From assembly GCA_964469405.1 (NCBI GenBank), contig CAYXYP010000004.1:7717-71716 (forward strand): a stretch of DNA of 64,000 nt. Reading direction: 5' to 3'. Position numbers and translations under genes: made by a program. Each line of letters opens with the position of its first letter. Positions within the stretch are counted from its first letter, which is position 1. The stretch is from an uncultured Candidatus Saccharibacteria bacterium (GTDB taxonomy: Bacteria; Patescibacteriota; Minisyncoccia; Phycocordibacterales; Phycocordibacteraceae). The notes below the pieces were generated by a model. It was not told where the DNA came from. It searched no databases and saw nothing but the letters and a program-made list of their open reading frames with translations. This document shows positions 2,413 to 61,108 of the stretch, in pieces.

Positions 2413-3213
2413 ATGAAAACCGCCAAGAAAGTTAGCTGGGTCGCCGTGTCAGGAGGATTCGACCCTATACATATCGGCCACGTTCGCATGTTTGAGAAGG
2501 CAAAGAAATTTGGCGATAAACTTGTGGTTATCGTCAACAACGATAATTGGCTTCTCGCCAAAAAGGGCTACGTATTTATGTCCGAAAAGGAACGTTGCGA
2601 AATTATTGCATCGTTTCCTTCCGTCGACAAAGTCATTTTGACCTCACATAAGCCAAACGATCCAGACAGAAGTGTTTGTCGCGAACTCACGAAATTAAAA
2701 CCCGCAATATTTGCAAATGGAGGTGACCGCAAAAGTACGAAAGATATTCCTGAAGCCGTCGTCTGCGAGAAGTACGGAATAAAGATGGTCTTTAATATCG
2801 GTCACGGCGGTAAAGTCCAGTCATCCTCGTGGCTTGCGCGCGATGCGAGTCGTAACTTCGCTCGCTCGGTGCGCCCATGGGGTGAATTCTACGGATGGGA
2901 TTCTGGGAAGGAGTGGAAACTGAAGACTCTCTATGTGAAAGCCGGACAACGTCTGAGTCTGCAGTATCATCATCATCGGACCGAACATTGGATTCTCGTT
3001 GAGGGCGATGTAACTGCGACACTACAAAAACCAGGCGGAATCTCAAAGCGTATGTCGCTCAAGAAAGGGGAGGTTATATTTGTCGATCGAAAGGATGTGC
3101 ATCGACTCGAATCGAAGAAAGGTGGAATCGTTGTCGAGATCGGATTTGGGAATTTTGACGAGAACGACATCGTGCGGCTTGAGGACGATCATGGTCGCGC
3201 AGCAGAACAATAG
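2413..3213 (+). CDS. bifunctional-looking protein: N-terminal sugar-phosphate nucleotidyltransferase (cytidylyltransferase-like, HldE-domain-II/TagD type) fused to a C-terminal cupin (type II phosphomannose-isomerase-like)
   Basis: GGFDPIHIGHVRMFEKAKKFGDKLVVIVNNDNWL resembles the (H/T)xGH nucleotidyltransferase motif of the cytidylyltransferase family. The C-terminal SLQYHHHRTEHWILVEGD...VEIGFGNFDENDIVRLED is a metal-binding cupin signature, as in ManC C-terminal PMI domains. Confidence 0.7.
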   Translation: MKTAKKVSWVAVSGGFDPIHIGHVRMFEKAKKFGDKLVVIVNNDNWLLAKKGYVFMSEKERCEIIASFPSVDKVILTSHKPNDPDRSVCRELTKLKPAIFANGGDRKSTKDIPEAVVCEKYGIKMVFNIGHGGKVQSSSWLARDASRNFARSVRPWGEFYGWDSGKEWKLKTLYVKAGQRLSLQYHHHRTEHWILVEGDVTATLQKPGGISKRMSLKKGEVIFVDRKDVHRLESKKGGIVVEIGFGNFDENDIVRLEDDHGRAAEQ

Positions 3214-4552: not shown

Positions 4553-6235
4553 CTAATTCGATGCGGGTACATCATTCCTTTCGAATATAAGGACTTCATT
4601 TGAAGTATATGCTTTATTGAAATATTTATATAGTCGCGCATTGATTTTTGGGTTATCGTTTATGCTCGTCCATACGGTGTCGTTTTTCTGCATGACTATC
4701 CAGCGCGCGTATTTCTCGGGTGTGATGAGCGATTCTTCCCAGTATGGCTTGTTACCGATGTAGATAATGTCCTTCATTTTGATGGGCGAACGAATGATGC
4801 TGATTGTTCGCGCAAAATCATCTGTTAATACCATGCCGCGATCGTAGTGAGATTCAAGCCAGAGTTGTGCATCAGGTATTTTTGCTGTTGCAGATGATAG
4901 GCCTGCAATACCATCTTGCAAGGCAAGCACCGGGGTGAATCCGATGAAGAAGAAAATGCACTGCAACGCGAGCAATCCCCCGATGAGTGTACGACCAAAA
5001 GTCCCACTACGAGAAAACAGATATCCTATGAAGAGCGCAATAACGGGCACCATCATAGCGCCGTAGCGCACATTGAAAAGTGTCCATTCAAAAGTAATCG
5101 GCGTGATGCCTGGTAGGAATATGACCGACTGGCCTAGGAATAAGGTGAGGACATTAAAAAATAATGGGACGAGAAGTACCAATAATATGAGCCATCGGTA
5201 GCGCATTTTTCTACTGAATCCAAACATAAATAGCCCCACAAGTGCGATGCACGCTAGGAGTGTTCCAACGCTCTGCATACTCGTGACCGTGTAATAAAGC
5301 AGCGCTACAAGGATATTGTGGTATGCGGGCAGCTCGCCTCTAACGAGCCAACTATTTTGTTGCGAGCTGGCTGAGAATTGACTGTGAGTGAAATAGAGTG
5401 GATCGCCGAGAATGAGAGCTCCCCATGAGAGCCAGAGGAAAATGCCAAAGAACGCTAATGTTATGAACAATATTTCGCGCCCCTCGAGTCGGTGCCATAG
5501 TTCCAAGAGCGTGCGCTTGCTCTTATGTATGAAGAGAGGCACTCGCTTACTCTGCAATCGAAACCAGGTGAGATTAAATCTCAAAGGAAAATAGTAGAGA
5601 AAGAGCACTCCTGCTTCCATCATCACGAGCGCCCAGCCGTCGTAGCGTGAGAGGGAAGCGCAGAATCCAAATCCTGCCGCTGCGATAAGCATGAGCAGTT
5701 TCGTATCATCGAGGAGAAACCGTATGAAGAAATAGCTTGAGAGAATGAAGAAGACGACCAGTGGGAGCTCGGTCATCGGTGTTGATTGTAGATAGAGGAT
5801 GTTGGGATTCGACATGAACACTATCGCTGCAAAAAAGGCTGCGCTCTTATTTCTGGTGAGAAGGTGAACGAGTTTGTATATATAAAGACTCGAAATAACA
5901 AAAGCAATGCCAGATATGATTGATCCCGCGAGTCCAGTACGCCAAAGGAAATCAAAGTATACGAATGGTATGAGCAATACGTGCGGCAAGGGCAACCAAA
6001 TACCGCCAAGCTGGGCAAAGCCAGGGGTGAGACTGTCTACGACGCGCTTGGCGATGTTGAGGTGCGACTCTGCATCCCCGTAGGCAGCGATGTATCCGTG
6101 AGTAAACGAATATGCCGTCGCGAGTATCGCGACGAATACGGCGAGTATAACGACCCACCACTCGGGAGTGAGCCATATACTCGGACGAAGTATCCATTCA
6201 AAATATTTCTTTCTGATGACAAAGGTGCTATTCAT
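4553..6235 (-). CDS. GT-C superfamily membrane glycosyltransferase (ArnT/PMT-like, polyprenyl-phosphate-sugar dependent)
   Basis: The 560-aa ORF has about 11 TM helices followed by a soluble C-terminal domain. The architecture is typical of GT39/GT83-like enzymes. It overlaps the upstream gene by 8 nt. Confidence 0.6.
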   Translation of the reverse strand: MNSTFVIRKKYFEWILRPSIWLTPEWWVVILAVFVAILATAYSFTHGYIAAYGDAESHLNIAKRVVDSLTPGFAQLGGIWLPLPHVLLIPFVYFDFLWRTGLAGSIISGIAFVISSLYIYKLVHLLTRNKSAAFFAAIVFMSNPNILYLQSTPMTELPLVVFFILSSYFFIRFLLDDTKLLMLIAAAGFGFCASLSRYDGWALVMMEAGVLFLYYFPLRFNLTWFRLQSKRVPLFIHKSKRTLLELWHRLEGREILFITLAFFGIFLWLSWGALILGDPLYFTHSQFSASSQQNSWLVRGELPAYHNILVALLYYTVTSMQSVGTLLACIALVGLFMFGFSRKMRYRWLILLVLLVPLFFNVLTLFLGQSVIFLPGITPITFEWTLFNVRYGAMMVPVIALFIGYLFSRSGTFGRTLIGGLLALQCIFFFIGFTPVLALQDGIAGLSSATAKIPDAQLWLESHYDRGMVLTDDFARTISIIRSPIKMKDIIYIGNKPYWEESLITPEKYARWIVMQKNDTVWTSINDNPKINARLYKYFNKAYTSNEVLIFERNDVPASN

Positions 6236-9200
6236 GGCGACGAATGTATGACAAGAGGAGTACGATTGCTGCGATAACTGCTATCACCACATATATGATG
6301 AGGAAATATTCCATCAAGGTGAGATGGATATACATATACGTCTTGTACACAAAGCTGCCACTTATATTGTCTTGCAGGAGTGGAATATCTTTCAAATAAT
6401 TGTATGTCTTTATTGGAAGTAATATTGCCTCAGATTTTTTTGGAATAGCATTTGATGTTAATGCTCCAAGAAGTGCTATGGCTGATGAGAAGAGGAACAG
6501 TGCGAATGCGGCGATTTTTTTTGGACCAAGAAATCGCCCATAGGAAAGTGCTATACCCACAAAAAGCGCGAGCCATGGCATTGCGGGGATGAGGTATCGC
6601 GGACCATACGCTGACCCTCCCCACGGATCACCCCATGCGCAGTACAGAAATATATTCGTCGCAATGAGAGCAATTGGTACGATATATATAGTACGATAGG
6701 TCTTCTTCCTGCGGAGAACATACATGATGCCAAGGAGCGAAAAAATAAATATCGGCGAGAAAAAGAATAGACCCCGCTCGTCAGAAAATAAGAGGACATA
6801 AAAACTGTTTGGTATGGATTTCTCATGGAAAAATCCAACAGCAGTTTTATCTTTTATTGGGACAGTGCTTGTGGCTGTTGCCGAAGTTGTAGTCGAGGAC
6901 GCCTTCGCAATTGCTGGCGTACTTGTCGCAGTGACAACTTTGTATCCTTTTAACTCTCCTGCAAGATGGCTCCATCCGCCGTAGTACGTGGCATTGTGCC
7001 AGAAATGTAGGCTGGTAACGAAAGCGAATACCACAAATGTCGCAATCGCACTCCATTGTATCGATATCGCAATACCCTCACGAATTTTTTTGAACGAGAA
7101 TGTCGAGACCGCGAGATAGATCATGACCGGTAGCATAAGTACGGCATTTGGGTAGTCGACGAAGATTGCAAGCGCATACGCGAGCCACACATACGCCGCA
7201 TAGAGGAATCTATATCGAGCGTCGCTTTGTGAGAAGCGCCATGCTGCATAAAATGCGGTGACGATAAAACATGCCGTAAAAGCGTTTTGATAGAGAGTGA
7301 TGGCATAGCTCCATGAGGTTGATCCAAATGCGTAGACAAGGACGGCGAATAATGCAGCCCATCGCGGTAATGCGAAGATACGTAGCCCGATGAGATATAT
7401 GAAAACGAGCGTAACGATGCTTATGAGGGATTCTGCAGAAAAGGTAGCAACTTGTCCGAGTCCATATTGCGCACCAAAAAGATAGAAGGGAAGAGTAAAA
7501 TACGAAACACCCGGGGCGAAATAGCTGTCTAATTTTCCATCAGACGACACGCCAACATCAGGATAGGCGATATCAGCCCATGTTTTCGAGAGATTATAGA
7601 CTCCATTCTCAGCCATGTTTGCGACTTGGGTATAGCGGCCACGCTCAGGGGACAATTCAAAAGCGTTTGTTGGTTGGTCTAAATTATTCTTGAATTGATC
7701 TTCGGTTGGATTTCCTGGTGCGCCACGCAACGTCAGTCCGTACATGACGAGACCAAGCATGACGATTGCTATGATGATGGCCGTATCTTTCTTTATAGTT
7801 ATTTTGCTCAGCCAGCTACTTTTTTTGGGAGTTTCTTTCCGCGGCGAGTAATACACTTCTGGTACTAAGGGAATATTCCCATCGGGAAACATCATTTTGG
7901 TCTGACTTGTGTATTCTTTGATCATCCCGAGTTTCATCTCCGGCTCTTCCTCGAAACGAAATACTTCAGTCGCGAGAGGATTGTCATCTTTCGAACCTAG
8001 AACGTTCTTCATATTGTAAGGGAAATCCTTCCACAGAATTACATTTTCGAAATTTTTGAGGCATACATCGCGGACGATCACGTGATCAATGTGTGATTTC
8101 AGAGCGAGCGGGCAGAAAATGACGAATTGTTTCTCATTCGCAATGAGCGCCCTTAATTCTTCCCCGAGGGAACGCATAAGATCTGTGTCGTGGGATGAAA
8201 TTGCTCCGCGGGCGATGTGTAATTGGTGTATCGGATACAAGTGCAAAAATTCCGGAAGAATACGGGAGAGTAGTTGGCGGAACTTACTCGGAGACGTTAT
8301 TTTTCTCCATGAAGCATCGATATATCCAAGATGGTGTGGAGTAATCCCGATACGTGAGTATGCTTTGCGGTCCTCTTCTTTTCGATCAATAAGGAGTTGA
8401 TTAGTATCCGTATACCCACACCGGTACAAGAATCGTAGGACGGAAAGCGTGTATGGTGGCGTCGACGCAGCGGTAAAAACGCTTATAACTTCGACTTGCG
8501 TATGCTTCGACAGGTGCGTAATTAAACCACCCGCCGATAGAGCAGCATCATCCAAGTGTGGAGAAATAAAATAGCACGGGATTTTCCCCGTAATTATTTT
8601 CTGCAAAAAATGAGTGTCGCCCATACTCGCCCGTATTTTTTTAGAGCTTTCTGCCATCTCCCACAATGAAGTAAACTTGTCGGTTTTGTGCAAGCGAACA
8701 TATAACAATATCAGAATAAAATTTATGGAAAAAATAGGGTGCGTGAAAAATTCTTTTACCATTTCCCTGAGTATGAGTCCGGGTGGAATAGCATATGCTT
8801 TTCTGGCCTCATCGCCAAATATATCAATCACAGCCTCTTTGCCTGCAGCAAAACGAGAACTCTGTTTTATATGGTCGCGGAGATTTGTTGGGCAACGAAA
8901 TATCGCTCGAGGATATTTTACGGAAACAAAATGCATTTTGTTTCCCATACAAAACATATACGACATAGCATCATACGGAGTATTGTCTGGGTACTGAATC
9001 GTTGCATATAATTTCTTTGAGAATGCCTGAGCAGGACCGAAACAAGTGTAAAGATTGTTCCCACTTCCTATCGATAAAAATAATTTCTGTTTCAATTCAT
9101 GATTCCAGACAAGAACCTTTTCAGTAAATGTTTTTGGGTTTGAAGGAAGAAGTGCCGCGCTCGTTAGTCCGACGGAGGAGTCATTAATAATTGGGCGTAT

Positions 9201-33757: not shown

Positions 33758-35302
33758 ATGGCTCGCGAAGAAAGCGTCATACGCTTTGAAGAAGTTACGT
33801 TTGAATACGGGCACAACAAACCAATCCTTGATGAGGTGGATTTTGCGTTACGCCGGGGGATGAAGATGGCGGTAATGGGCCAGAACGGTGCAGGGAAGTC
33901 GACACTATTCGCTCTGATGACTGGCGAACTTACACCAGAGTCAGGAGAGGTACATATGTCGCATGGCATGAGGGTAGCGACCGCGGCGCAAGTAATTCCG
34001 CGCGACCGCCTTGAACTCACTGTGCGTGAATTCTTCCAGAAATGCTTTACAGAGCCGATATATGACATCGACCCCCGTATCGACGAGGTACTGGAGGTCG
34101 TGAACTTAGAACACCATCAGAAGCTTCATGATCGTATCGTGAAGAGCTTCTCGGGCGGTCAGCAGGCGCGACTCCTCCTTGCCTCGGCGCTTATCCAGAA
34201 CCCCGACCTACTTCTCCTCGATGAGCCGACGAACAACCTTGATACGGCAGGCATTGAGCATCTCACGAAGTTTCTCGTCGAGTATCCGAAGACGGTCGTC
34301 GTCATCTCGCACGATGCTGATTTCTTGAATGCATTCACAACTGGCGTCCTCTATCTGGATATCTTCACGCGCAAAATCGAACAGTATCCGGGGAATTATC
34401 ATGATGTGCAGCGCGATATATTAATGCGTATCGAAAAAGAGAATCGTAAGAATGCCCAGCTCGAAAAAAAGATTCAGGAGAACAAAGATAAAGCCAACTT
34501 CTTCGCGCAGAAAGGAGGGAAGATGCGTCTCGTGGCAAAGAAGATGCGCACAGAAGTCGAAGAGATGGAGGAGGCGAAGGTGGATGTACGCAAAGAGGAT
34601 CGGACCATCCGGCCGTTCACGATTCCCGCACAAGATAATCTCGGTGGTACGGTGCTTACGCTCACGTCCTATACGGTTTTGAAGGGGAGGAAGCCGGTGA
34701 TAAAGAAAGCGAACATCTCTCTCCGGAAGAATCAACATCTACTCCTTCGCGGCCCAAATGGTATTGGGAAAAGCACGTTACTCGAGGCTATCGCACGAGG
34801 TGTCGCTGACGATTTTTTCGTTGGTAATCCGACGAGCAAAAATCGCGTCGGGAATGAGCACATTTCCGACGCCTCTCAGTCTCGAGGAAAAGTTACGTTG
34901 ACTGCTGCATCTGGGCTAAAGGTCGGTTACTACCGGCAAGATTTCTCCACGCTAGATTTTGAGCAGACTGTTTATAAGGCGCTCGAACATGCGATGGGCA
35001 AGCCAGACGAGGAGCGGTTACGCGCGACCGCTGCCGGATTTCTTCTCAGTGCAGATGTCATGCAAACAAAGATCGGGAATCTTTCTGAAGGGCAGAAGGG
35101 TCTCGTTGCTTTTGCTTCACTCGTGCTTGAGCGCCCAGGGCTTCTCATTCTCGATGAGCCGACGAATCATATAAACTTCCGTCACTTGCCCGTCATCGCG
35201 AAAGCACTCGACGCGTACGCAGGTACGATGATTCTCGTTTCCCACGTACCGGAATTTGTTACTCAAATCCGCATAGACGAAATCCTTGATCTTGAGAAAT
35301 GA
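33758..35302 (+). CDS. ABC-F family ATPase (tandem ABC domains, no TM domain)
   Basis: There are two Walker A motifs (GQNGAGKST, GPNGIGKST) and two signature/Walker B sets (LSGGQQARL...LLLDEPTNNLD, LSEGQKGLV...LILDEPTNHI). The inter-domain linker is charged. Confidence 0.85.
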   Translation: MAREESVIRFEEVTFEYGHNKPILDEVDFALRRGMKMAVMGQNGAGKSTLFALMTGELTPESGEVHMSHGMRVATAAQVIPRDRLELTVREFFQKCFTEPIYDIDPRIDEVLEVVNLEHHQKLHDRIVKSFSGGQQARLLLASALIQNPDLLLLDEPTNNLDTAGIEHLTKFLVEYPKTVVVISHDADFLNAFTTGVLYLDIFTRKIEQYPGNYHDVQRDILMRIEKENRKNAQLEKKIQENKDKANFFAQKGGKMRLVAKKMRTEVEEMEEAKVDVRKEDRTIRPFTIPAQDNLGGTVLTLTSYTVLKGRKPVIKKANISLRKNQHLLLRGPNGIGKSTLLEAIARGVADDFFVGNPTSKNRVGNEHISDASQSRGKVTLTAASGLKVGYYRQDFSTLDFEQTVYKALEHAMGKPDEERLRATAAGFLLSADVMQTKIGNLSEGQKGLVAFASLVLERPGLLILDEPTNHINFRHLPVIAKALDAYAGTMILVSHVPEFVTQIRIDEILDLEK

Positions 35303-36162
35303 ATATTTCACGCTCGCTCTCGGCCACCTTCAAAGCGAAAGATACGCTTGAAGGCGCAGGAGTGCATCTGAAGCGCGGGTTCTCAAATATCGAAGCGTCA
35401 CGCTTTGACCCGTTTCTCTTGTTTGATGATTTCAGTTCGAATATTCCGGAGCATTACCGCGCCGGATTCCCGTGGCATCCGCATCGTGGTATGGAGACGG
35501 TCACGTATATCCTCGACGGTGCAGTACGGCATAAAGACAGTCTAGGGAATGAAGGGGTGATTGAGAGTGGTGCCATTCAGTGGATGACCGCAGGTAGTGG
35601 AATCATTCATGAAGAGATGCCTGAGAGCGCGAATGGTATTCGAGGCTTTCAATTATGGGTGAATCTACCGAAGAGAAATAAGATGACGCCGCCTCGGTAT
35701 CAAGATCTCAAAGGGGCGACGGTCCCAGTGGTTGATCTCGGCTCACATGCGCGAGTGCGCGTCATTTCGGGGGAGATTTCTGGCATAGCCGGCCCGCTCA
35801 AATCGATTGCCGGAAATCCGCTGTATGCGGACATAACTCTTTTGCCGAACGGGATAGTTTCAGTTCCTGTGCCTTCAGGAGACACAGTTTTCGCCTATGT
35901 AGTCGAAGGAGCACTTGGTGTGGACGAAATCGAACCGACGTACTTTGCGCCGGGAACCATTCTACTTTTCGAGCGTCAAGGCGACGTCGTCAGTTTGCGT
36001 GCGCCCGTTATGGGCGCACGATTCCTTCTCATATCCGGCGCTCCGCTTAATGAGCCGATCGCCTGGCATGGTCCCATCGTAATGAATACAGACGAAGAGT
36101 TGCGCACGGCATTTCGAGAATTGAATGAAGGTAGTTTTCTTCGAAGAGATACTTTCCAATAA
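35299..36162 (+). CDS. pirin-family cupin protein
   Basis: HPHRGMETVTYILDG is present, along with a bicupin architecture. Confidence 0.85.
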   Translation: MNISRSLSATFKAKDTLEGAGVHLKRGFSNIEASRFDPFLLFDDFSSNIPEHYRAGFPWHPHRGMETVTYILDGAVRHKDSLGNEGVIESGAIQWMTAGSGIIHEEMPESANGIRGFQLWVNLPKRNKMTPPRYQDLKGATVPVVDLGSHARVRVISGEISGIAGPLKSIAGNPLYADITLLPNGIVSVPVPSGDTVFAYVVEGALGVDEIEPTYFAPGTILLFERQGDVVSLRAPVMGARFLLISGAPLNEPIAWHGPIVMNTDEELRTAFRELNEGSFLRRDTFQ

Positions 36163-36242
36163 GTGTTTTGAGGCGGGAGACTGTTGAAGTAATCATTAGA
36201 TTCTCGTTTTATGCGCCGAGCAGGTATAATGAACTTATTGAT

Positions 36243-37625
36243 ATGAATGATAAGAAGTTTCAAAATGAAGCCGAGCACCTATTTGAAGCGCCCGCGAAAC
36301 TTCTAGAGGAGAGTGTTGTTTTCGTGAAAAAGGAAGAGCGTACTCTAGCAAAAAAGAAACCACTCAAGCTTGCAGAGGAATATTGGGATACTCTCGGCCC
36401 TGGACTTACGACGGGTGCTGCCGATGATGATCCTTCCGGAATAGCCACGTATTCGCAGGCAGGAGCCAAGTACGGTCTGCAGCTTATCTGGCTCTCGCTC
36501 TTCACGTATCCCTTCATGGCTACGGTGCAAGAGATGTGTGCGCGCATCGGTCTCGTTTCGGGTCAGGGGCTCGCAGCGAACATTCGGAATCAATATTCCA
36601 TGAGCGTACTATATGCGGTGACCGCGCTACTCTTTTTTGCGAATGTGTTTAATATCGCTGCCGATCTCGGCGCCATGGCGGCAGCGTCGCGCCTTTTATT
36701 TCCAGGCTTCGGGTTGGAACTGCTTGTTATATTTTTTGCCCTCGTGAGCCTTGCACTCCAAATATTCACCACCTATGCGCACTATGCAAAATATTTGAAG
36801 TATTTAGCGCTCGCCCTGCTCTCGTATGCCGCAGTTGCATTTGCAGTGGGTCTTGATTGGAGCGACGTTCTCTATCACACATTCGTCCCCTCGATAACTT
36901 TTTCTAAGGATCAACTATTCCTCATCTGCGCTATTTTAGGAACCACCATTTCCCCTTATCTTTTCTTCTGGCAGACTTCTCAAGAAGTCGAAGAGAGAAT
37001 ATTGAAAGGCGAGACGACTATTGAGGCGCGCCGAGAACAGGTGAGTAAGCACTCTTTACGCCGTATGCGCACCGATGTATGGAGTGGAATGTTCTTCTCA
37101 AACCTCATCGCGTTCTTCATTTTTGCTGCGTGCGCAGGTACTTTGTATGCGAATGGCATAACAAATATTGCTACGGCAGATCAGGCAGCTCTGGCTCTTA
37201 AACCCTTTGGAGAATTTGCTTTTTTGCTCTTTGCCATTGGTATTGTCGGCACAGGGCTTCTCGCGGTACCGGTTTTAGCGGGTTCAACCGCGTATGCAAT
37301 TAGTGAAAGTTTCGGATGGAAACACGGTCTTCATCTTAAATTAAAACAGGCGTACGCGTTTTACGGAGTCATTATTGTATCGATGGTACTCGGCATTGCA
37401 GCAAATTTTGCGCATCTTGATCCCATACAGGGACTTATTTATGCCGCAGTCGCAAATGGCATCATTGCACCATTCATCCTCTTCTTTGTCGTACGCCTCT
37501 CGAGTAGTCGGAATCTTATGGGAGAATACGCAAACCGACCGCTCGTTTCATTCATCGGGTGGATTACAATCGCTATCATGGCTATTTCGGGCATTGCGGC
37601 CATTACAACTTTGTTTTGGCATTAA
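36243..37625 (+). CDS. mntH: NRAMP-family divalent-metal transporter (MntH-like)
   Basis: GPGLTTGAADDDPSGIATYSQAGAKYGLQLIWL is an NRAMP signature. About 11 TM helices are predicted. The ORF track starts at 36168; I prefer the ATG at 36243 (MNDKKF). The start is uncertain. Confidence 0.7.
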   Translation: MNDKKFQNEAEHLFEAPAKLLEESVVFVKKEERTLAKKKPLKLAEEYWDTLGPGLTTGAADDDPSGIATYSQAGAKYGLQLIWLSLFTYPFMATVQEMCARIGLVSGQGLAANIRNQYSMSVLYAVTALLFFANVFNIAADLGAMAAASRLLFPGFGLELLVIFFALVSLALQIFTTYAHYAKYLKYLALALLSYAAVAFAVGLDWSDVLYHTFVPSITFSKDQLFLICAILGTTISPYLFFWQTSQEVEERILKGETTIEARREQVSKHSLRRMRTDVWSGMFFSNLIAFFIFAACAGTLYANGITNIATADQAALALKPFGEFAFLLFAIGIVGTGLLAVPVLAGSTAYAISESFGWKHGLHLKLKQAYAFYGVIIVSMVLGIAANFAHLDPIQGLIYAAVANGIIAPFILFFVVRLSSSRNLMGEYANRPLVSFIGWITIAIMAISGIAAITTLFWH

Positions 37626-37800: not shown

Positions 37801-37871
37801 GCCGGTGTAGTTCAATGGTAGAACGAAGGACTCATAAGCCTTAGACAGTGGTTCGATTCCACTCATCGGCA
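37801..37871 (+). tRNA. tRNA-Met (anticodon CAT); elongator type, or tRNA-Ile2 if lysidinylated
   Basis: The cloverleaf is acceptor GCCGGTG/CATCGGC (one G-U), D arm GTTC-AATGGTA-GAAC, anticodon loop CTCATAA, and T arm AGTGG-TTCGATT-CCACT. The 1:72 base pair is G-C, so it is not an initiator. The 3' CCA is not encoded. Confidence 0.8.
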
Positions 37872-38097
37872 CACACGACATTTTGGGAAAATTTTGGTAG
37901 GATGGGAAAACGAGCGCTTGCTGAGATAGTCAGGCTTACAGTAGTAAGCCTGAGACAGGCTTCTCACGCGGCGCTCGGAGAAAATACAAGCTCGCTTGTA
38001 TTTTACTCCTCGCTTGCGGGAGCAAGCTTAAGAGAGCATGCTCCCGGCGCGTTCGCTCACATAAGAAAATCTGATACTTTTCTTAGTTTCCTCACTT

Positions 38098-38171
38098 GCG
38101 GGAGTAGCTCAACTGGTTAGAGCGCCGCCCTGTCACGGCGGAGGTTGCGGGTTCAAGTCCCGTCTCTCGCG
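38098..38171 (+). tRNA. tRNA-Asp (anticodon GTC)
   Basis: The cloverleaf is acceptor GCGGGAG/CTCTCGC, anticodon stem-loop CCGCC-CTGTCAC-GGCGG, and T arm GCGGG-TTCAAGT-CCCGT. Confidence 0.85.
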
Positions 38172-38215
38172 CAGAATAGAAAAGCCGGCGAAAGCCGGCC
38201 TTTTCTTTATTCTGC
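38171..38215 (+). terminator. composite intrinsic terminator after tRNA-Asp
   Basis: An inner stem gccggc-gaaa-gccggc is followed by cttttctt. An outer stem pairs gcagaata with tattctgc. Confidence 0.65.
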
Positions 38216-39366: not shown

Positions 39367-40086
39367 TTAGTGTGAGTGTAAACCGTAGCCTAATTGTGAC
39401 GCATGCGCAGAATGGTTCCGATGGATAAGTTCGTCGTTACGAATGAGCTCAAACAGCTCGTATTCATTTCGAACATTTCTTCCATAGAATGCAAGGAAGT
39501 CGGAGGTGACGGGAGTCTGTTTCAGGTGCTCGCCTTCGTTCTCAAGAAATTGTGAGTATTGCTCATACGCATGCGACTCAAAGAGGTAATTGAGGTCGAG
39601 TGCCGCTCGTCGGGAAACGAGGAAGAGGATATATACCGTCCAGAAATAGAAGAATGAGAAGAGAAACGGGATGAACGTATGACGAATGAAGCTTTGGCAG
39701 CGGAGGCGTTGCACAATCTGCGAAAGGACGACGACGTGCATCGTTTCATTGTCCTGAGCCATTCGACTGAACGCATTTAGCTTTGTAAGCTCGATGGCCC
39801 GGTGCTCATTCGAATAGAGCGCAGTTAGGATGGTGTACGCCGCGATTTCCCATGATTGGTAGGGGATTCGGGCGATAACCTCTATCGCTTTGAACTTAGC
39901 ATAGGACGGTGTGCGACCATAGATAAAAGTGCCTGAATGTACAAGAAGCGATCCGAGTAGTCGTGATATGAGCAACGGACGGTAGTGGTCAAAGGGCGCC
40001 GCATATTCAGCCCGGAGAGCAGAATCATTAAGCGACCGAGCAAGTTCTTCACTGATTGTAAATTCGTCGTTCATTTTTCCGAGCAT
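39367..40086 (-). CDS. di-iron carboxylate protein of alternative-oxidase (AOX/PTOX) type
   Basis: IEVIARIPY, NEHRAIE, LFESHAYEQY and IRNDELIHRNHS parallel the four AOX iron-binding helices (LETVA, NERMHL, LEEEAIHSY, RADEAHHRDVNH). There is a central hydrophobic membrane-dipping segment. Confidence 0.5.
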   Translation of the reverse strand: MLGKMNDEFTISEELARSLNDSALRAEYAAPFDHYRPLLISRLLGSLLVHSGTFIYGRTPSYAKFKAIEVIARIPYQSWEIAAYTILTALYSNEHRAIELTKLNAFSRMAQDNETMHVVVLSQIVQRLRCQSFIRHTFIPFLFSFFYFWTVYILFLVSRRAALDLNYLFESHAYEQYSQFLENEGEHLKQTPVTSDFLAFYGRNVRNEYELFELIRNDELIHRNHSAHASQLGYGLHSH

Positions 40087-40439
40087 TATGTGCGGCCGTA
40101 TCGATCTTCGAGACGTTGGATATCGTTTTCGTTGAATTCACCAAACGCAATTTCAAGAAAGGTGAGACCTTCGGGGCCTCCCAGAGCTCGATGTTTCGTA
40201 TGGCGTGGGCTGAAGAAAGTATCGCCTTCCTTCGCGTTATGGTCTGTATCATCGATATGTATCACGCCAGAACCTTTGAGTACGCGCCAGAATTCGTCGC
40301 GGTGTTCATGGGTCTGCAGACTGAAGGCCTCGCCGGCATCAACGGTGATTATTTTTACCGTCGTCTGCTCGTTCAGAGTGAAGCGTTCAAAGTCTCCCCA
40401 CGGGCGTTTCTCCTTTTCGTAGTGCGACAGACCTTCCAT
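40086..40439 (-). CDS. stand-alone cupin (type II phosphomannose-isomerase-like), paralog of the C-terminal domain of the 2413-3213 protein
   Basis: RPWGDFERF...SLQTHEHRDEFWRVLKGSG...LEIAFGEFNENDIQRLEDRYGR is present. Its stop overlaps the start of the AOX-like gene. Confidence 0.65.
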   Translation of the reverse strand: MEGLSHYEKEKRPWGDFERFTLNEQTTVKIITVDAGEAFSLQTHEHRDEFWRVLKGSGVIHIDDTDHNAKEGDTFFSPRHTKHRALGGPEGLTFLEIAFGEFNENDIQRLEDRYGRT

Positions 40440-40566
40440 AGGATATCCTCAGTATACTGTATTTTTATGGGTTATCATAAGCGCTATGCATGGGGGTTTT
40501 CATCATCTACGTAAACGCATTCGCGTTGCTCAAGGCATTGAGCCATTTCCTGCGCGTTCGATTGGG

Positions 40567-40893: not shown

Positions 40894-40966
40894 GCCGAGA
40901 TAGCTCAGTTGGTAGAGCACGTCCATGGTAAGGACGAGGTCGTCGGTTCAATCCCGACTCTCGGCT
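40894..40966 (+). tRNA. tRNA-Thr (anticodon GGT)
   Basis: The cloverleaf is acceptor GCCGAGA/TCTCGGC, D arm GCTC-AGTTGGTA-GAGC, anticodon CGTCC-ATGGTAA-GGACG, and T arm GTCGG-TTCAATC-CCGAC. Confidence 0.85.
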
Positions 40967-41101
40967 CAAAATTGGGAAAAGTAAAGACATGATGTATTCT
41001 AGTCTGAGTTGCTAGTGTCACCAAAGTTCAGCTGGTGGGTTGTCGACGATTGGTATCGTGACAAAAAATTCTTGTTCTGTAAACGTAATCGAATACCGTA
41101 A

Positions 41102-41174
41102 GCCGCCTTAGCTCAGTTGGTAGAGCGACTGCATCGTAAGCAGTAGGTCCCCAGTTCAAGCCTGGGAGGCGGCT
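41102..41174 (+). tRNA. tRNA-Thr (anticodon CGT)
   Basis: The cloverleaf is acceptor GCCGCCT/AGGCGGC, anticodon ACTGC-ATCGTAA-GCAGT, and T arm CCCAG-TTCAAGC-CTGGG. Confidence 0.85.
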
Positions 41175-41233
41175 CATTCAGTAGAATCTATGTCCAAAGA
41201 CACGAATTTGTAAATTCGCCTACTGGGTCAAAA

Positions 41234-54128: not shown

Positions 54129-55418
54129 CTATCGCCCGGCAAGCTTCGATTTTTGTGATGCGTGGGTTCCGGCGACATACCCAGTCGTCCAGCAAAGTTG
54201 CAGCGAATAACCGCCCGACGGCCGAGTAATATGCAGCAGATCTCCCGTGACGAATAGGTTCTCATAGAGCCGACTTCGCATGGTCCGTGTATCAATTTCG
54301 GTAAGAGAGAGCCCTCCATCAGCCACTACCGCCCGATCGAAGCCCATGAGCCCCGTGATAGTTACTGGAACGTGTTTCAGAAGCTCAATGATCTCTCGCC
54401 GATATTCTTTTGTAACGCTATGGACTTTTGTATCGGGGTTGATATTCGGAAGAAGCGATAGAAGAATTTCGGCTGTACCAGGAGGCGCGATATCTTTGAA
54501 AACGTTTTTGAGCCGTTTATTTTTATTGGTATCAAAAAGTTTAGTGATCTTTTGGTCGAGCGCACCTACATCCAAATCAGGGCACGTGTCGATGGCGGCA
54601 GTGACGTTTCCTTCTTGAAGCATATCAGCCACTTTCCCTGCGCTGTTGAGGATAGTCGGACCGGATATTCCAAAATGGGTGAAAAGAAGTGTCCCCACAG
54701 TCGAAAATTTCTTTGTGCCATGCACAGAGAACGAAATTCTCATCGAAGGAAGGGAAGTACCCGCAAGCCGTTTGACCCACCCCTCTTTCACTTTGAGCGG
54801 AACGATGGTTGGGGTTGGTTTCGCTGTAGCATGTCCAAGCTCGGCGAGCCATGAGAATCCGTCTCCAGTCGAGCCGGTCTCAGGGTGCGAGGCGCCTCCA
54901 GTTGCGAGTATGTAAGAGCTTGCTGAGAAATCTCCTACGCTCGTCTGAACTTTAACTATGCGTCCGTGTGTGCCGACGATCTTTCTTACAGTGATGCCCG
55001 TGCGCACCTCGACATGCGTTTCTGCGAGATACTTTTCGAGTATAGCGACTACGTCAGGTGCGCGCTCGTTTACCGGAAAGACTCGTTTTTGCGCCTCGAC
55101 TTTCAGGGGCAATCCCCGAGATTCAAAAAATGAAAAAGTGTCTGATACTCCAAATTGCGCGAATGTTGAATGGAGAAATTTATCCATCTTTCCGTATTTG
55201 GAGAGGAAGATTCGTACGTCTGCTTCGGCATTCGTGATGTTGCAACGACCACCGCCAGTGATAGCGAGTTTCTCGCCAAGCCGCACATTCTTCTCGAGGA
55301 GTAGAACACGTTTTCCATTTTCGGCGGCGTGGCCGGCCGCCATCATGCCGGATGCTCCACCGCCAATCACGATCACGTCGTAGTGAGAAGTAGACCTCAT
55401 TGGGGCTAATGAACGCAC
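54129..55418 (-). CDS. HI0933-like (BaiN/aminoacetone-oxidase family) FAD-dependent flavoprotein
   Basis: YDVIVIGGGASGMMAAGHAAENGKRVLLLEKN...GGGRCNITN is the family signature. Confidence 0.8.
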   Translation of the reverse strand: MRSLAPMRSTSHYDVIVIGGGASGMMAAGHAAENGKRVLLLEKNVRLGEKLAITGGGRCNITNAEADVRIFLSKYGKMDKFLHSTFAQFGVSDTFSFFESRGLPLKVEAQKRVFPVNERAPDVVAILEKYLAETHVEVRTGITVRKIVGTHGRIVKVQTSVGDFSASSYILATGGASHPETGSTGDGFSWLAELGHATAKPTPTIVPLKVKEGWVKRLAGTSLPSMRISFSVHGTKKFSTVGTLLFTHFGISGPTILNSAGKVADMLQEGNVTAAIDTCPDLDVGALDQKITKLFDTNKNKRLKNVFKDIAPPGTAEILLSLLPNINPDTKVHSVTKEYRREIIELLKHVPVTITGLMGFDRAVVADGGLSLTEIDTRTMRSRLYENLFVTGDLLHITRPSGGYSLQLCWTTGYVAGTHASQKSKLAGR

Positions 55419-60100: not shown

Positions 60101-61108
60101 ATGATAGACAAATCGCCGTCGCTATTTCGTTTTTTTCTTGTTCCCAGCGTGGTTTCAATCGCGATACTTGCAGGAGTGGGTATTTTTTTAGGACCAGTCG
60201 CTCTCTTTACGGCAGTGCTGCTTGTCGTGCTTGAAATAACTCTTTCTTTTGACAATGCCGTCGTAAATGCACGAGTGCTTCAGAAGATGAATCCTCTATG
60301 GCAACATCGTTTTCTTACCTGGGGTATCTTTATTGCGGTATTTCTCACGCGCGTAGTGCTCCCGGTCCTCATCGTCGCCGCTTCAGTCGCTATGTCTCCT
60401 TTAGTGATTGCGTCTATTGCTTTGTTTGACCCTGCACAATACGCAGAATTACTACATGGTGCGGAGCACATCATCGCTTCATTTGGAGGGATGTTTCTCA
60501 CCATGGTAGGACTTAAATATTTTTTTGATGAGGCGAAAGAAGTACACTGGATTCATCACATTGAACGACATTTCGCCCGGTGGGGGAGCATAGAAGCGCT
60601 TGAGATTGCCATTGCCCTCAGTCTTCTTACTGGCATAGCTCTCTTTTTGCCTGCGGACAGCACCGGTATTTTCTTTGCGGGCATCATTGCAATCGTGCTC
60701 TTTATTATCGTGCAGGGAATCGCGAATTCTTTCGATATCTCGACAAACAGCGTTGCTGCATCAGGTCTTGCATTGTTCGTCTATCTTAACGTTCTCGATG
60801 CAGCATTCTCGCTCGATAGTGTCGTGGGGGCGTTCGCTCTTTCGACGAGTATCCCAATCATTATCGTCGGTCTTGGCATCGGAGCATATTTCGTACGCAT
60901 GCTCACTCTCTATATGGTGCACAATGGTACGCTCTCTCGAATCATGTACATAGAGCACGGCGCACATTGGGCGATCCTCGGACTTGCGGGAGCGATGTTC
61001 GCAGGCATGTTTGTGCATGTCCCTGAACCAATTATTGGCCTCGTAGGGCTCCTTTTTGTGGGTGGGGCATACATATCGTCTATTCGCTCCGTGTCAGTCC
61101 GTGCATAG
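60101..61108 (+). CDS. TerC/DUF475-like integral membrane protein
   Basis: EITLSFDNAVVNA resembles the TerC-family ELSLSVDNA motif. About 9 TM helices are predicted. Confidence 0.6.
   Translation: MIDKSPSLFRFFLVPSVVSIAILAGVGIFLGPVALFTAVLLVVLEITLSFDNAVVNARVLQKMNPLWQHRFLTWGIFIAVFLTRVVLPVLIVAASVAMSPLVIASIALFDPAQYAELLHGAEHIIASFGGMFLTMVGLKYFFDEAKEVHWIHHIERHFARWGSIEALEIAIALSLLTGIALFLPADSTGIFFAGIIAIVLFIIVQGIANSFDISTNSVAASGLALFVYLNVLDAAFSLDSVVGAFALSTSIPIIIVGLGIGAYFVRMLTLYMVHNGTLSRIMYIEHGAHWAILGLAGAMFAGMFVHVPEPIIGLVGLLFVGGAYISSIRSVSVRA

Follow-up and report, generated by a model that had tools for sequence, protein, structure and literature searches.

A 64,000-nt stretch of contig CAYXYP010000004.1, from an uncultured Candidatus Saccharibacteria bacterium and referred to here as the window, encodes on its minus strand a protein of 239 residues which is very probably an intact di-iron enzyme of the alternative oxidase (AOX) and plastid terminal oxidase (PTOX) family. 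Its open reading frame (ORF; 39367..40086) lies directly behind that of a 117-residue cupin (40086..40439), and both ORFs are present where an earlier, sequence-only reading of this DNA had placed them. That reading had proposed the AOX/PTOX assignment, which is borne out by Pfam, by invariant iron ligands and by fold matches, and it had coupled the enzyme to the cupin. The interpretation favoured here, with a rough probability of 0.6, is that the protein would act as an AOX/PTOX-type quinol:O2 oxidase and that the cupin would be merely a co-transcribed neighbour. The interest of the locus rests on a physiological puzzle, the presence of such an oxidase in such a host, and not on the cupin pairing.

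A divergent member of the AOX/PTOX family

The single Pfam match of the 239-residue protein is PF01786 (AOX), which scores 32.3 bits where the gathering cut-off is 22.7 (E=1e-7), with residues 63-226 aligned to positions 54-211 of the 216 in the profile. No NCBIfam model matches the oxidase. The sequence-only reading had allowed for a diverged hydroxylase of the Coq7 or MiaE kind and had proposed profile searches and a ligand alignment as checks. Neither these two families nor rubrerythrin give a Pfam or NCBIfam match at E<=1, which, together with the fold comparison below, tells against that option. A database search returned 986 homologues, and these carry precomputed PF01786 annotations. 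The best 120 are all about 230 residues long, some bear the name 'alternative oxidase' or 'ubiquinol oxidase', and in every case where the source name of the best homologues gives an organism it is Patescibacteria, Parcubacteria, Paceibacterota or Zambryskibacteria. The AOX assignment itself is already known, in that databases tag the homologues as AOX. An identical protein is found on at least 24 contigs from several Hainich groundwater samples which, alongside the 986 homologues, excludes a chance ORF. At least 185 species-level genomes, every one with a label of Patescibacteria type, carry a member of the family, whose mean column identity among 30 members is 67%. It constitutes a divergent, lineage-specific subfamily of AOX/PTOX.

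Conservation was assessed in two alignments, A1 with 30 members of the oxidase family, and A2 with 19 sequences extending from the family to distant bacterial clades and PTOX-type proteins. Ten residues are invariant in both: E69, N113, E114, H117, E170, H172, Y177, D218, E219 and H222. They include six iron ligands in the order E ... ExxH ... E ... ExxH, namely E69, E114/H117, E170 and E219/H222. Residue numbers were transferred to the trypanosome AOX (TAO; PDB 3VV9) by transitive alignment through an intermediate PTOX-like protein, P0219, whereby E69 corresponds to TAO E123, E114/H117 to E162/H165, E170 to E213 and Y177 to Y220. The tyrosine lies seven residues past the third glutamate, as Y220 does in TAO; N113 and D218 are the equivalents of TAO N161 and D265, and K64, five residues before E69, aligns with TAO R118 so that a basic residue is kept. 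We take these Tyr, Asn and Asp positions to have the catalytic and second-shell roles assigned to them in structural work on TAO.

Three of the four iron motifs picked out in the sequence-only reading hold, IEVIARIPY (E69), LFESHAYEQY (E170, Y177) and IRNDELIHRN (E219, H222). The remaining one, NEHRAIE (residues 93-99), had been mistaken for an ExxH motif. The true second motif is QDNETMH (111-117), because its E114 and H117 align with TAO E162/H165 and are invariant in A1 and A2. With this correction the Glu/His ligands align with those of PTOX-type proteins, and three of the motifs map onto TAO.

The central hydrophobic region reported earlier is real. Kyte-Doolittle values (19-residue mean) reach 2.05 across residues 138-158, and a second hydrophobic stretch spans residues 37-57. 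These would presumably occupy the positions of AOX alpha-4 and alpha-1, respectively, as we understand the TAO structure. The family also possesses an N-terminal helix of its own, with conserved E13, L19, D21, R25 and Y28. Family alignments begin at M5 (ATG at 40074), and the true start is possibly 12 nt further in. The features of the oxidase gene are as follows.

39367..40086, minus strand: gene for an AOX/PTOX-like di-iron carboxylate oxidase, 239 aa (235 aa from M5); ORF, PF01786, homologues and predicted fold.
39859..39885, minus strand: iron motif 1, IEVIARIPY, with ligand E69 (TAO E123); E69 invariant in A1 and A2, transitive alignment via P0219.
39736..39756, minus strand: iron motif 2, QDNETMH, with ligands E114 and H117 (TAO E162 and H165) and second-shell N113 (TAO N161); invariant in A1 and A2, aligned to AENERMH of TAO.
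39556..39585, minus strand: iron motif 3, LFESHAYEQY, with ligand E170 (TAO E213), Tyr Y177 (TAO Y220) and PTOX-type H172; all three invariant in A1 and A2.
39415..39441, minus strand: iron motif 4, RNDELIHRN, with ligands E219 and H222 and second-shell D218; invariant in A1 and A2, the Pfam AOX match reaching profile position 211/216.
39613..39675, minus strand: hydrophobic helix 138-158 (FIPFLFSFFYFWTVYILFLVS), predicted to dip into the membrane, at the AOX alpha-4 position; Kyte-Doolittle up to 2.05, model helix 133-157.
39916..39978, minus strand: N-terminal hydrophobic helix 37-57, the second predicted membrane-binding helix, at the AOX alpha-1 position; Kyte-Doolittle ~1.35, model helix 39-56 with pLDDT >90.

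Fold and position within the superfamily

An AlphaFold2 (AF2) model of the 239-residue protein, built on the family alignment, is all-helical with a mean pLDDT of 83.6 and a pTM of 0.85. It was compared by Foldseek with the PDB and with viral models. The top 14 PDB matches are all trypanosome AOX chains (probability 1.0, TM ~0.52, 16-19% identity), and COQ7 follows with a probability of 0.21 and a TM of 0.26. Among the viral models, cyanophage plastoquinol terminal oxidases, named as such or nearly so, account for three of the top four matches; the best has E=3e-6 and TM 0.60/0.70.

Sequence comparison leads in the same direction by another route. P0219 shares 28% identity with the protein (E=1e-15, BLASTP), and the family profile matches PTOX-type proteins (E from 1e-13 to 1e-9). 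Among the PDB sequences, no AOX chain is found by phmmer or by the profile, which fails to reach TAO at E<=10. Weak matches to a lysophospholipase and a kinesin in the same sequence set were dismissed as chance. Since direct sequence searches missed TAO, the link to this enzyme was made through the PTOX-like intermediate and the fold search. PTOX-type proteins, by contrast, are reached by sequence, and the third motif is of the ESHAY type; for these reasons the family is assigned, as judged from sequence, to the PTOX-like part of the AOX/PTOX superfamily, as a short form which lacks the plastid-type insertion. This placement draws on sequence and fold matches and the third motif.

An oxidase in an apparently non-respiring host

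The window encodes glycosyltransferases, transporters, translation factors, FtsEX, CTP synthase, two-component signalling proteins and tRNAs. No respiratory complex, quinone-biosynthesis gene or recognisable quinone reductase is present in its 64 kb, the extent of DNA covered by all negatives on respiration and quinones given here, including the outcome of the search for quinone biosynthesis that the sequence-only reading had suggested. That reading had supposed a reduced, fermentative host and had called the oxidase unexpected. The host does appear to be non-respiring: the labels borne by the nearest species-level genomes are Kaiserbacteria, Nomurabacteria, Paceibacterota or Parcubacteria, and the nearest loci come from metagenome-assembled genomes of the first three. 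The surprise is likewise justified, as the oxidase is out of place given the absence of respiratory and quinone genes from the window and what has been published on Parcubacteria. Genomes of this group, C7867-004 included, were reported to be without quinone and flavin biosynthesis (PMC4508563), and the bo3 or bd oxidases found sporadically among them have been read as O2 scavengers (PMC4508563, PMC8407418, PMC9938205).

C7867-004, published as a near-complete genome, is itself a carrier of the oxidase. Its contig LFCN01000006.1 (locus L026) encodes a family member, P0090, at 6001-6696, annotated as hypothetical and preceded by a flavin adenine dinucleotide (FAD)-dependent dehydrogenase gene of the type described below. 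Nelson and Stegen found genes for the use of O2 as terminal electron acceptor in three of eight genomes, and C7867-004 was not among them (PMC4508563). Surveys of O2 reductases in Patescibacteria have considered haem-copper and bd enzymes only and concluded that O2 reductases are nearly absent (PMC7507113). A single AOX match in the candidate phyla radiation appears in one paper, where it was regarded as a transfer from proteobacteria (PMC9540462), and a 2025 survey of RefSeq genomes placed prokaryotic PTOX in Cyanobacteria only and AOX in Pseudomonadota only (PMC7618691). Among the papers searched, none describes an AOX/PTOX-type oxidase family in Patescibacteria.

Besides the oxidase and a Pirin protein, the sole recognised redox domain among the annotated proteins of the window is that of an HI0933-like FAD flavoprotein of 429 aa (54129-55418, minus strand), which is without an exact copy in the contig index.

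Gene neighbourhoods of the oxidase family

Gene contexts were compared across 80 loci of the oxidase family from species-representative genomes. A frequent association is with a protein of 552 aa with FAD_binding_4 and FAD-oxidase_C domains, whose gene precedes that of the oxidase, on the same strand and mostly across a gap of ~20 nt, in 30 of the 65 loci which extend 1.7 kb or more upstream. The best NCBIfam match of this protein is to residues 19-540 of the 1018 in YdiJ (D-2-hydroxyglutarate dehydrogenase), at 264 bits and below the cut-off, followed by GlcD; in the PDB it is related to glycolate oxidase, LctD and D-lactate and D-2-hydroxyglutarate dehydrogenases. It is without the Fe-S/CCG half of YdiJ, examples being L015:3559-5217 and L018:4329-5984 (within L014-L061). 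In a neighbour-joining tree, the oxidases which follow a cupin form a clade nested in the crown group where the oxidase usually follows this FAD-linked protein, whilst deeper clades of the family have other neighbours.

The association does not hold in the reverse direction. The FAD dehydrogenase is widespread, occurring on at least 578 metagenomic stretches, and only nine of 57 metagenomic dehydrogenase loci with room downstream carry the oxidase. Because this reciprocal test was negative, the dehydrogenase is downgraded from a partner to a lead, and the link is not put forward as a finding. No dehydrogenase of the 552-aa type is encoded in the window. Some loci have the oxidase gene between the dehydrogenase gene and a conserved gene for an RRM protein and others do not, and this, with the other neighbours seen in deeper clades, shows the oxidase to be a patchy accessory gene which has landed 3' of different resident genes in different lineages.

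The surroundings of the oxidase in the window were also considered as an iron/oxidative-stress island, an idea which was rejected: Pirin, Nramp and Mem_trans genes occur in none of the 80 loci, and those for PQ-loop, VTT and NUDIX proteins are confined to the closest clade. The Pirin gene of the window (a two-domain Fe cupin of 287 aa) and, 5 nt behind it, that of an Nramp Mn/Fe transporter (485 aa) lie together at 35299-37625 on the plus strand. This pair, 1.7 kb from the oxidase, looks suggestive of metal supply but is near the oxidase in 0/80 related loci. A DUF475/TerC-family membrane protein is encoded at 60101-61108 (plus strand), 20 kb from the oxidase; a homologue stands two to four genes 5' of the oxidase in 12 related loci, which probably reflects synteny and not function.

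The cupin and its junction with the oxidase

The 117-residue protein matches PF01050 (MannoseP_isomer) from end to end with 68.3 bits against a cut-off of 23.6, and Cupin_2 with 42.4 bits. It resembles the type-II phosphomannose isomerase (PMI) cupin domain found at the C-terminus of ManC/AlgA-like GMP/PMI enzymes, and covers only the C-terminal 110 residues of the GMP/PMI model TIGR01479 (residues 356-467). Those enzymes have a guanylyltransferase domain in addition, whereas the present cupin stands alone. Its His/Glu motifs for metal binding, SLQTHEHRDEFW and PRHTKHR, are conserved in relatives, and NCBI names its homologues 'phosphomannose isomerase type II C-terminal cupin domain'. At least 800 such homologues exist in Patescibacteria at 73-100% identity, with more than 100 clusters at 73-93%. 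The cupin is probably a mannose-6-phosphate isomerase and would be the resident gene of the region.

40086..40439, minus strand: stand-alone type-II PMI cupin, 117 aa (SLQTHEHRDEFW ... PRHTKHR); PF01050, Cupin_2 and TIGR01479 C-terminal match.
40084..40088, minus strand: TAATG stop/start overlap from cupin to oxidase; direct reading of the sequence.
40451..40503, minus strand: short spacer between divergent genes, bearing two sigma-70-like sites 5' of the cupin, the sole candidate promoter for the pair; weak, with three sites against 2.9 expected by chance.

The overlap of the oxidase start with the cupin stop that had been noted earlier is present as TAATG: the junction reads CACATAATGCTC, in which the TAA stop of the cupin and the ATG of the oxidase have one base in common. 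The divergent spacer 5' of the cupin is 46 nt long and contains the two sigma-70-like sites; a promoter and terminator scan around the pair found nothing above chance. With either start of the oxidase, the two genes are packed for co-transcription, and the arrangement of the sequence suggests that they are probably translationally coupled as well. The coupling claimed by the sequence-only reading is therefore plausible at the level of expression, and is kept in seven related species, but 73 of the 80 loci are without the pairing. A cupin stands directly 5' of the oxidase in 7/80 family loci only (L005-L011, where the oxidase is at least 75% identical), five of these seven having a 4-nt overlap. 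A dedicated hidden Markov model detected two more cupins ~5 kb from the oxidase (L032 and L043) and none in other loci.

A joint function of the two metalloproteins is not indicated, since the cupin is a ubiquitous PMI-type protein which occupies the same slot in relatives without the oxidase. In these it keeps the FtsE-RF2-...-cupin neighbourhood seen in the window, for which reason it is the oxidase that looks like the accessory insert. In one relative (L167) the cupin gene overlaps two GH130 mannoside-phosphorylase genes followed by a PMM-like gene, a setting of mannose metabolism. The simplest reading is that the oxidase gene was placed behind the cupin in one shallow lineage and uses the cupin expression signals. 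The pairing thus looks like an ordinary operon accident, with shared expression and not a shared pathway.

The interval between RF2 and the cupin is a variable region, because its gene content differs among relatives. Pairs of tRNA genes at 37801-38172 (Met, Asp) and 40894-41175 (Thr-GGT, Thr-CGT) flank a 2.7-kb segment of the window which holds the Mem_trans, oxidase, cupin and PQ-loop genes. GC content at the cupin and oxidase genes is 0.47-0.48, the same as in the rest of the window, and the local GC profile around the pair gives no signal of foreign DNA. An Rfam scan of the window returned tRNAs only.

Two further observations concern the cupin. A second PMI-type cupin domain is encoded in the window at 2413-3213 (plus strand) within a fused protein of 266 aa, CTP_transf_like + MannoseP_isomer (cytidylyltransferase-like), whose gene adjoins a large glycosyltransferase cluster (3.2-17.5 kb) including a multi-glycosyltransferase protein of 1402 aa. 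In relatives without the oxidase, a NAD_binding_1 protein of ~500 aa is encoded 1-3 kb beyond the cupin (L168:6562-8097, L169:5256-8019, L170:5620-8354). In L169 and L170 this protein has weak or faint similarity to RnfD/NqrB, and genes for an ApbE flavin transferase and an FMN_bind protein come after its own. The module of L168-L170 resembles flavin-based membrane or extracytoplasmic electron transfer, and is absent from the window.

Proposed function and alternatives

From the family membership, active site, fold, distribution and gene contexts, we infer a quinol donor, reduction of O2 and a physiological role along the following lines. The two hydrophobic helices would fix a four-helix bundle in a single membrane leaflet, making the protein monotopic. 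The di-iron centre held by E69, E114/H117, E170 and E219/H222, with Y177, would accept electrons from a lipid-soluble quinol and reduce O2 to water with no pumping of protons. The quinone would have to be scavenged with host or environmental lipids, because the bacterium is apparently without a respiratory chain and, according to the literature, without quinone synthesis; scavenged host quinone is the most economical source of the quinol. The pay-off would be the removal of O2 and the disposal of reducing equivalents rather than the conservation of energy, and O2 detoxification is our best guess at the function. Several observations weigh against this scheme. The match to AOX is remote, with modest E-values in the PDB fold search (from 3e-3), a root-mean-square deviation of ~9 Å and a family profile which misses TAO by sequence at E<=10. 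Positions of the TAO quinol pocket differ, T219, E215 and L212 being replaced by Q176, H172 and F169. Finally, no quinone source is visible in the 64-kb window, and the presumed substrate is to that extent hypothetical.

Two other explanations are available, both of which we consider unlikely. In one, the protein would be a quinone-independent terminal oxidase receiving electrons directly from a flavoprotein dehydrogenase, the two forming a substrate:O2 oxidoreductase. The candidate partner in many relatives is the FAD-linked D-2-hydroxyacid dehydrogenase whose gene precedes the oxidase gene in 30/65 loci, and its likeness to the N-terminal half of YdiJ (264 bits, below the cut-off), without the Fe-S and quinone-reducing half, would suit such a role, as would hosts reported to be devoid of quinone synthesis (PMC4508563). 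Set against this are the failure of the reciprocal test (9/57), the presence or absence of the oxidase between the dehydrogenase and RRM-protein genes, as expected of insertion into a syntenic slot, and the absence of any such dehydrogenase from the window. Furthermore, we know of no AOX/PTOX member which takes a protein donor. In the other, of much the same low probability, an AOX-like scaffold, recruited as a di-iron hydroxylase or oxygenase, would act on a lipid, on a tRNA base or on a small aromatic compound, in the manner of Coq7, MiaE and further di-iron carboxylate enzymes. The E/ExxH/E/ExxH ligand set is common to many di-iron oxygenases, the family stands very far from any characterised AOX (17-19% identity), its pocket residues are unlike those of TAO, and no quinone source is evident. 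Yet AOX is the sole Pfam match, COQ7 falls behind 14 AOX chains in the fold search with a probability of 0.21, the best fold match is to cyanophage PTOX, the AOX-specific Tyr and the Asn/Asp second shell are invariant, and both membrane helices are kept.

That the cupin and the oxidase are two metalloenzymes of one pathway, the cupin making or processing the oxidase substrate or acting as a dioxygenase partner, is less probable still. The stop/start overlap, the retention of the arrangement in all seven of the closest species loci (L005-L011) and the presence, in L032 and L043, of cupin homologues ~5 kb away from the oxidase can be cited in its favour. They are outweighed by the 73 loci where no cupin adjoins the oxidase, by a cupin far commoner than the oxidase (at least 800 matches at 73-100% identity) which keeps its FtsE-RF2 neighbourhood without it, by the type-II PMI signature and by the mannose-metabolism setting of L167, with its overlapping GH130 and nearby PMM-like genes. 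Least credible of all is a decaying or non-functional remnant of horizontal acquisition. A patchy distribution over several genomic slots would fit such a remnant, as would the want of an obvious substrate pathway, but the protein is full length with all catalytic residues invariant, the family has a mean identity of 67%, the identical protein recurs on at least 24 contigs, and the local GC content of 0.47-0.48 is that of the window. A quinol:O2 oxidase with a co-transcribed cupin thus remains the preferred interpretation.

The occurrence of a conserved PTOX-like family in 185 or more species genomes of Patescibacteria would broaden the current pictures of O2 reductases in this group and of PTOX distribution. 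As a single gene which should be easily expressed, it offers a test of whether these symbionts consume O2 and whether they depend on host quinones. It is attractive to consider, albeit as a proposition which we regard as rather doubtful, that these 185 or more species use a single-subunit PTOX-like enzyme as a real O2 reductase, acting on pirated host quinones or directly on flavoprotein dehydrogenases, among them the neighbouring truncated YdiJ-like 2-hydroxyacid dehydrogenase. If true, this would amount to a minimal 'respiration without a chain', by which ultra-small fermenters could live in oxic groundwater. Patescibacteria are held to be ancestrally without electron-transport chains, and surveys of their O2 reductases dealt with haem-copper and bd enzymes only.

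Comparison with known oxidases

The closest parallels are with PTOX, represented by IMMUTANS and by the cyanobacterial and cyanophage enzymes. Both groups belong to the same Pfam family and have the six iron ligands and the tyrosine, and both have a third motif E-x-H-A-Y-x-x-Y-x-x-F-L and a first motif ARxPY, in what we take to be the usual wording of the PTOX motifs. PTOX proteins are the nearest by sequence and supply the best viral fold match, and the present protein is close in size to the phage forms of ~200 aa. Despite this, PTOX-type proteins in A2 score 94-110 bits on Pfam AOX compared with 32 bits here, eukaryote-type PTOX has an insertion of 20-45 residues between helices 5 and 6 which is absent here (A2 columns ~376-433), and the present protein has a conserved N-terminal helix of its own. 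Its host, moreover, is non-photosynthetic, apparently without plastoquinone or an electron-transport chain.

The AOX enzymes of mitochondria and proteobacteria, with TAO as the example, provide the best solved-structure match (14 chains at probability 1.0). The ligands and the tyrosine map onto TAO, K64 lies at the position of R118, equivalents of N161 and D265 are present, and there are two hydrophobic membrane helices in each. The differences are nevertheless considerable: identity is 16-19% and TAO goes undetected by phmmer or the family profile, the ligand spacings are 39/51/53 residues in TAO and 45/56/49 here, the third motif is EEEA in TAO and ESHA here, and the host apparently has no ubiquinone pool.

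The cytochrome bo3 and bd quinol oxidases of a few Parcubacteria and Saccharibacteria are unrelated to the present protein, requiring haem (and copper) and several subunits and generating a proton-motive force, whilst the protein described here would be haem-free, non-electrogenic and composed of one subunit. They are comparable in that they reduce O2 and occur sporadically in hosts without quinone biosynthesis, where they have been viewed as O2 scavengers or as reliant on host quinones (PMC4508563, PMC8407418, PMC9938205).

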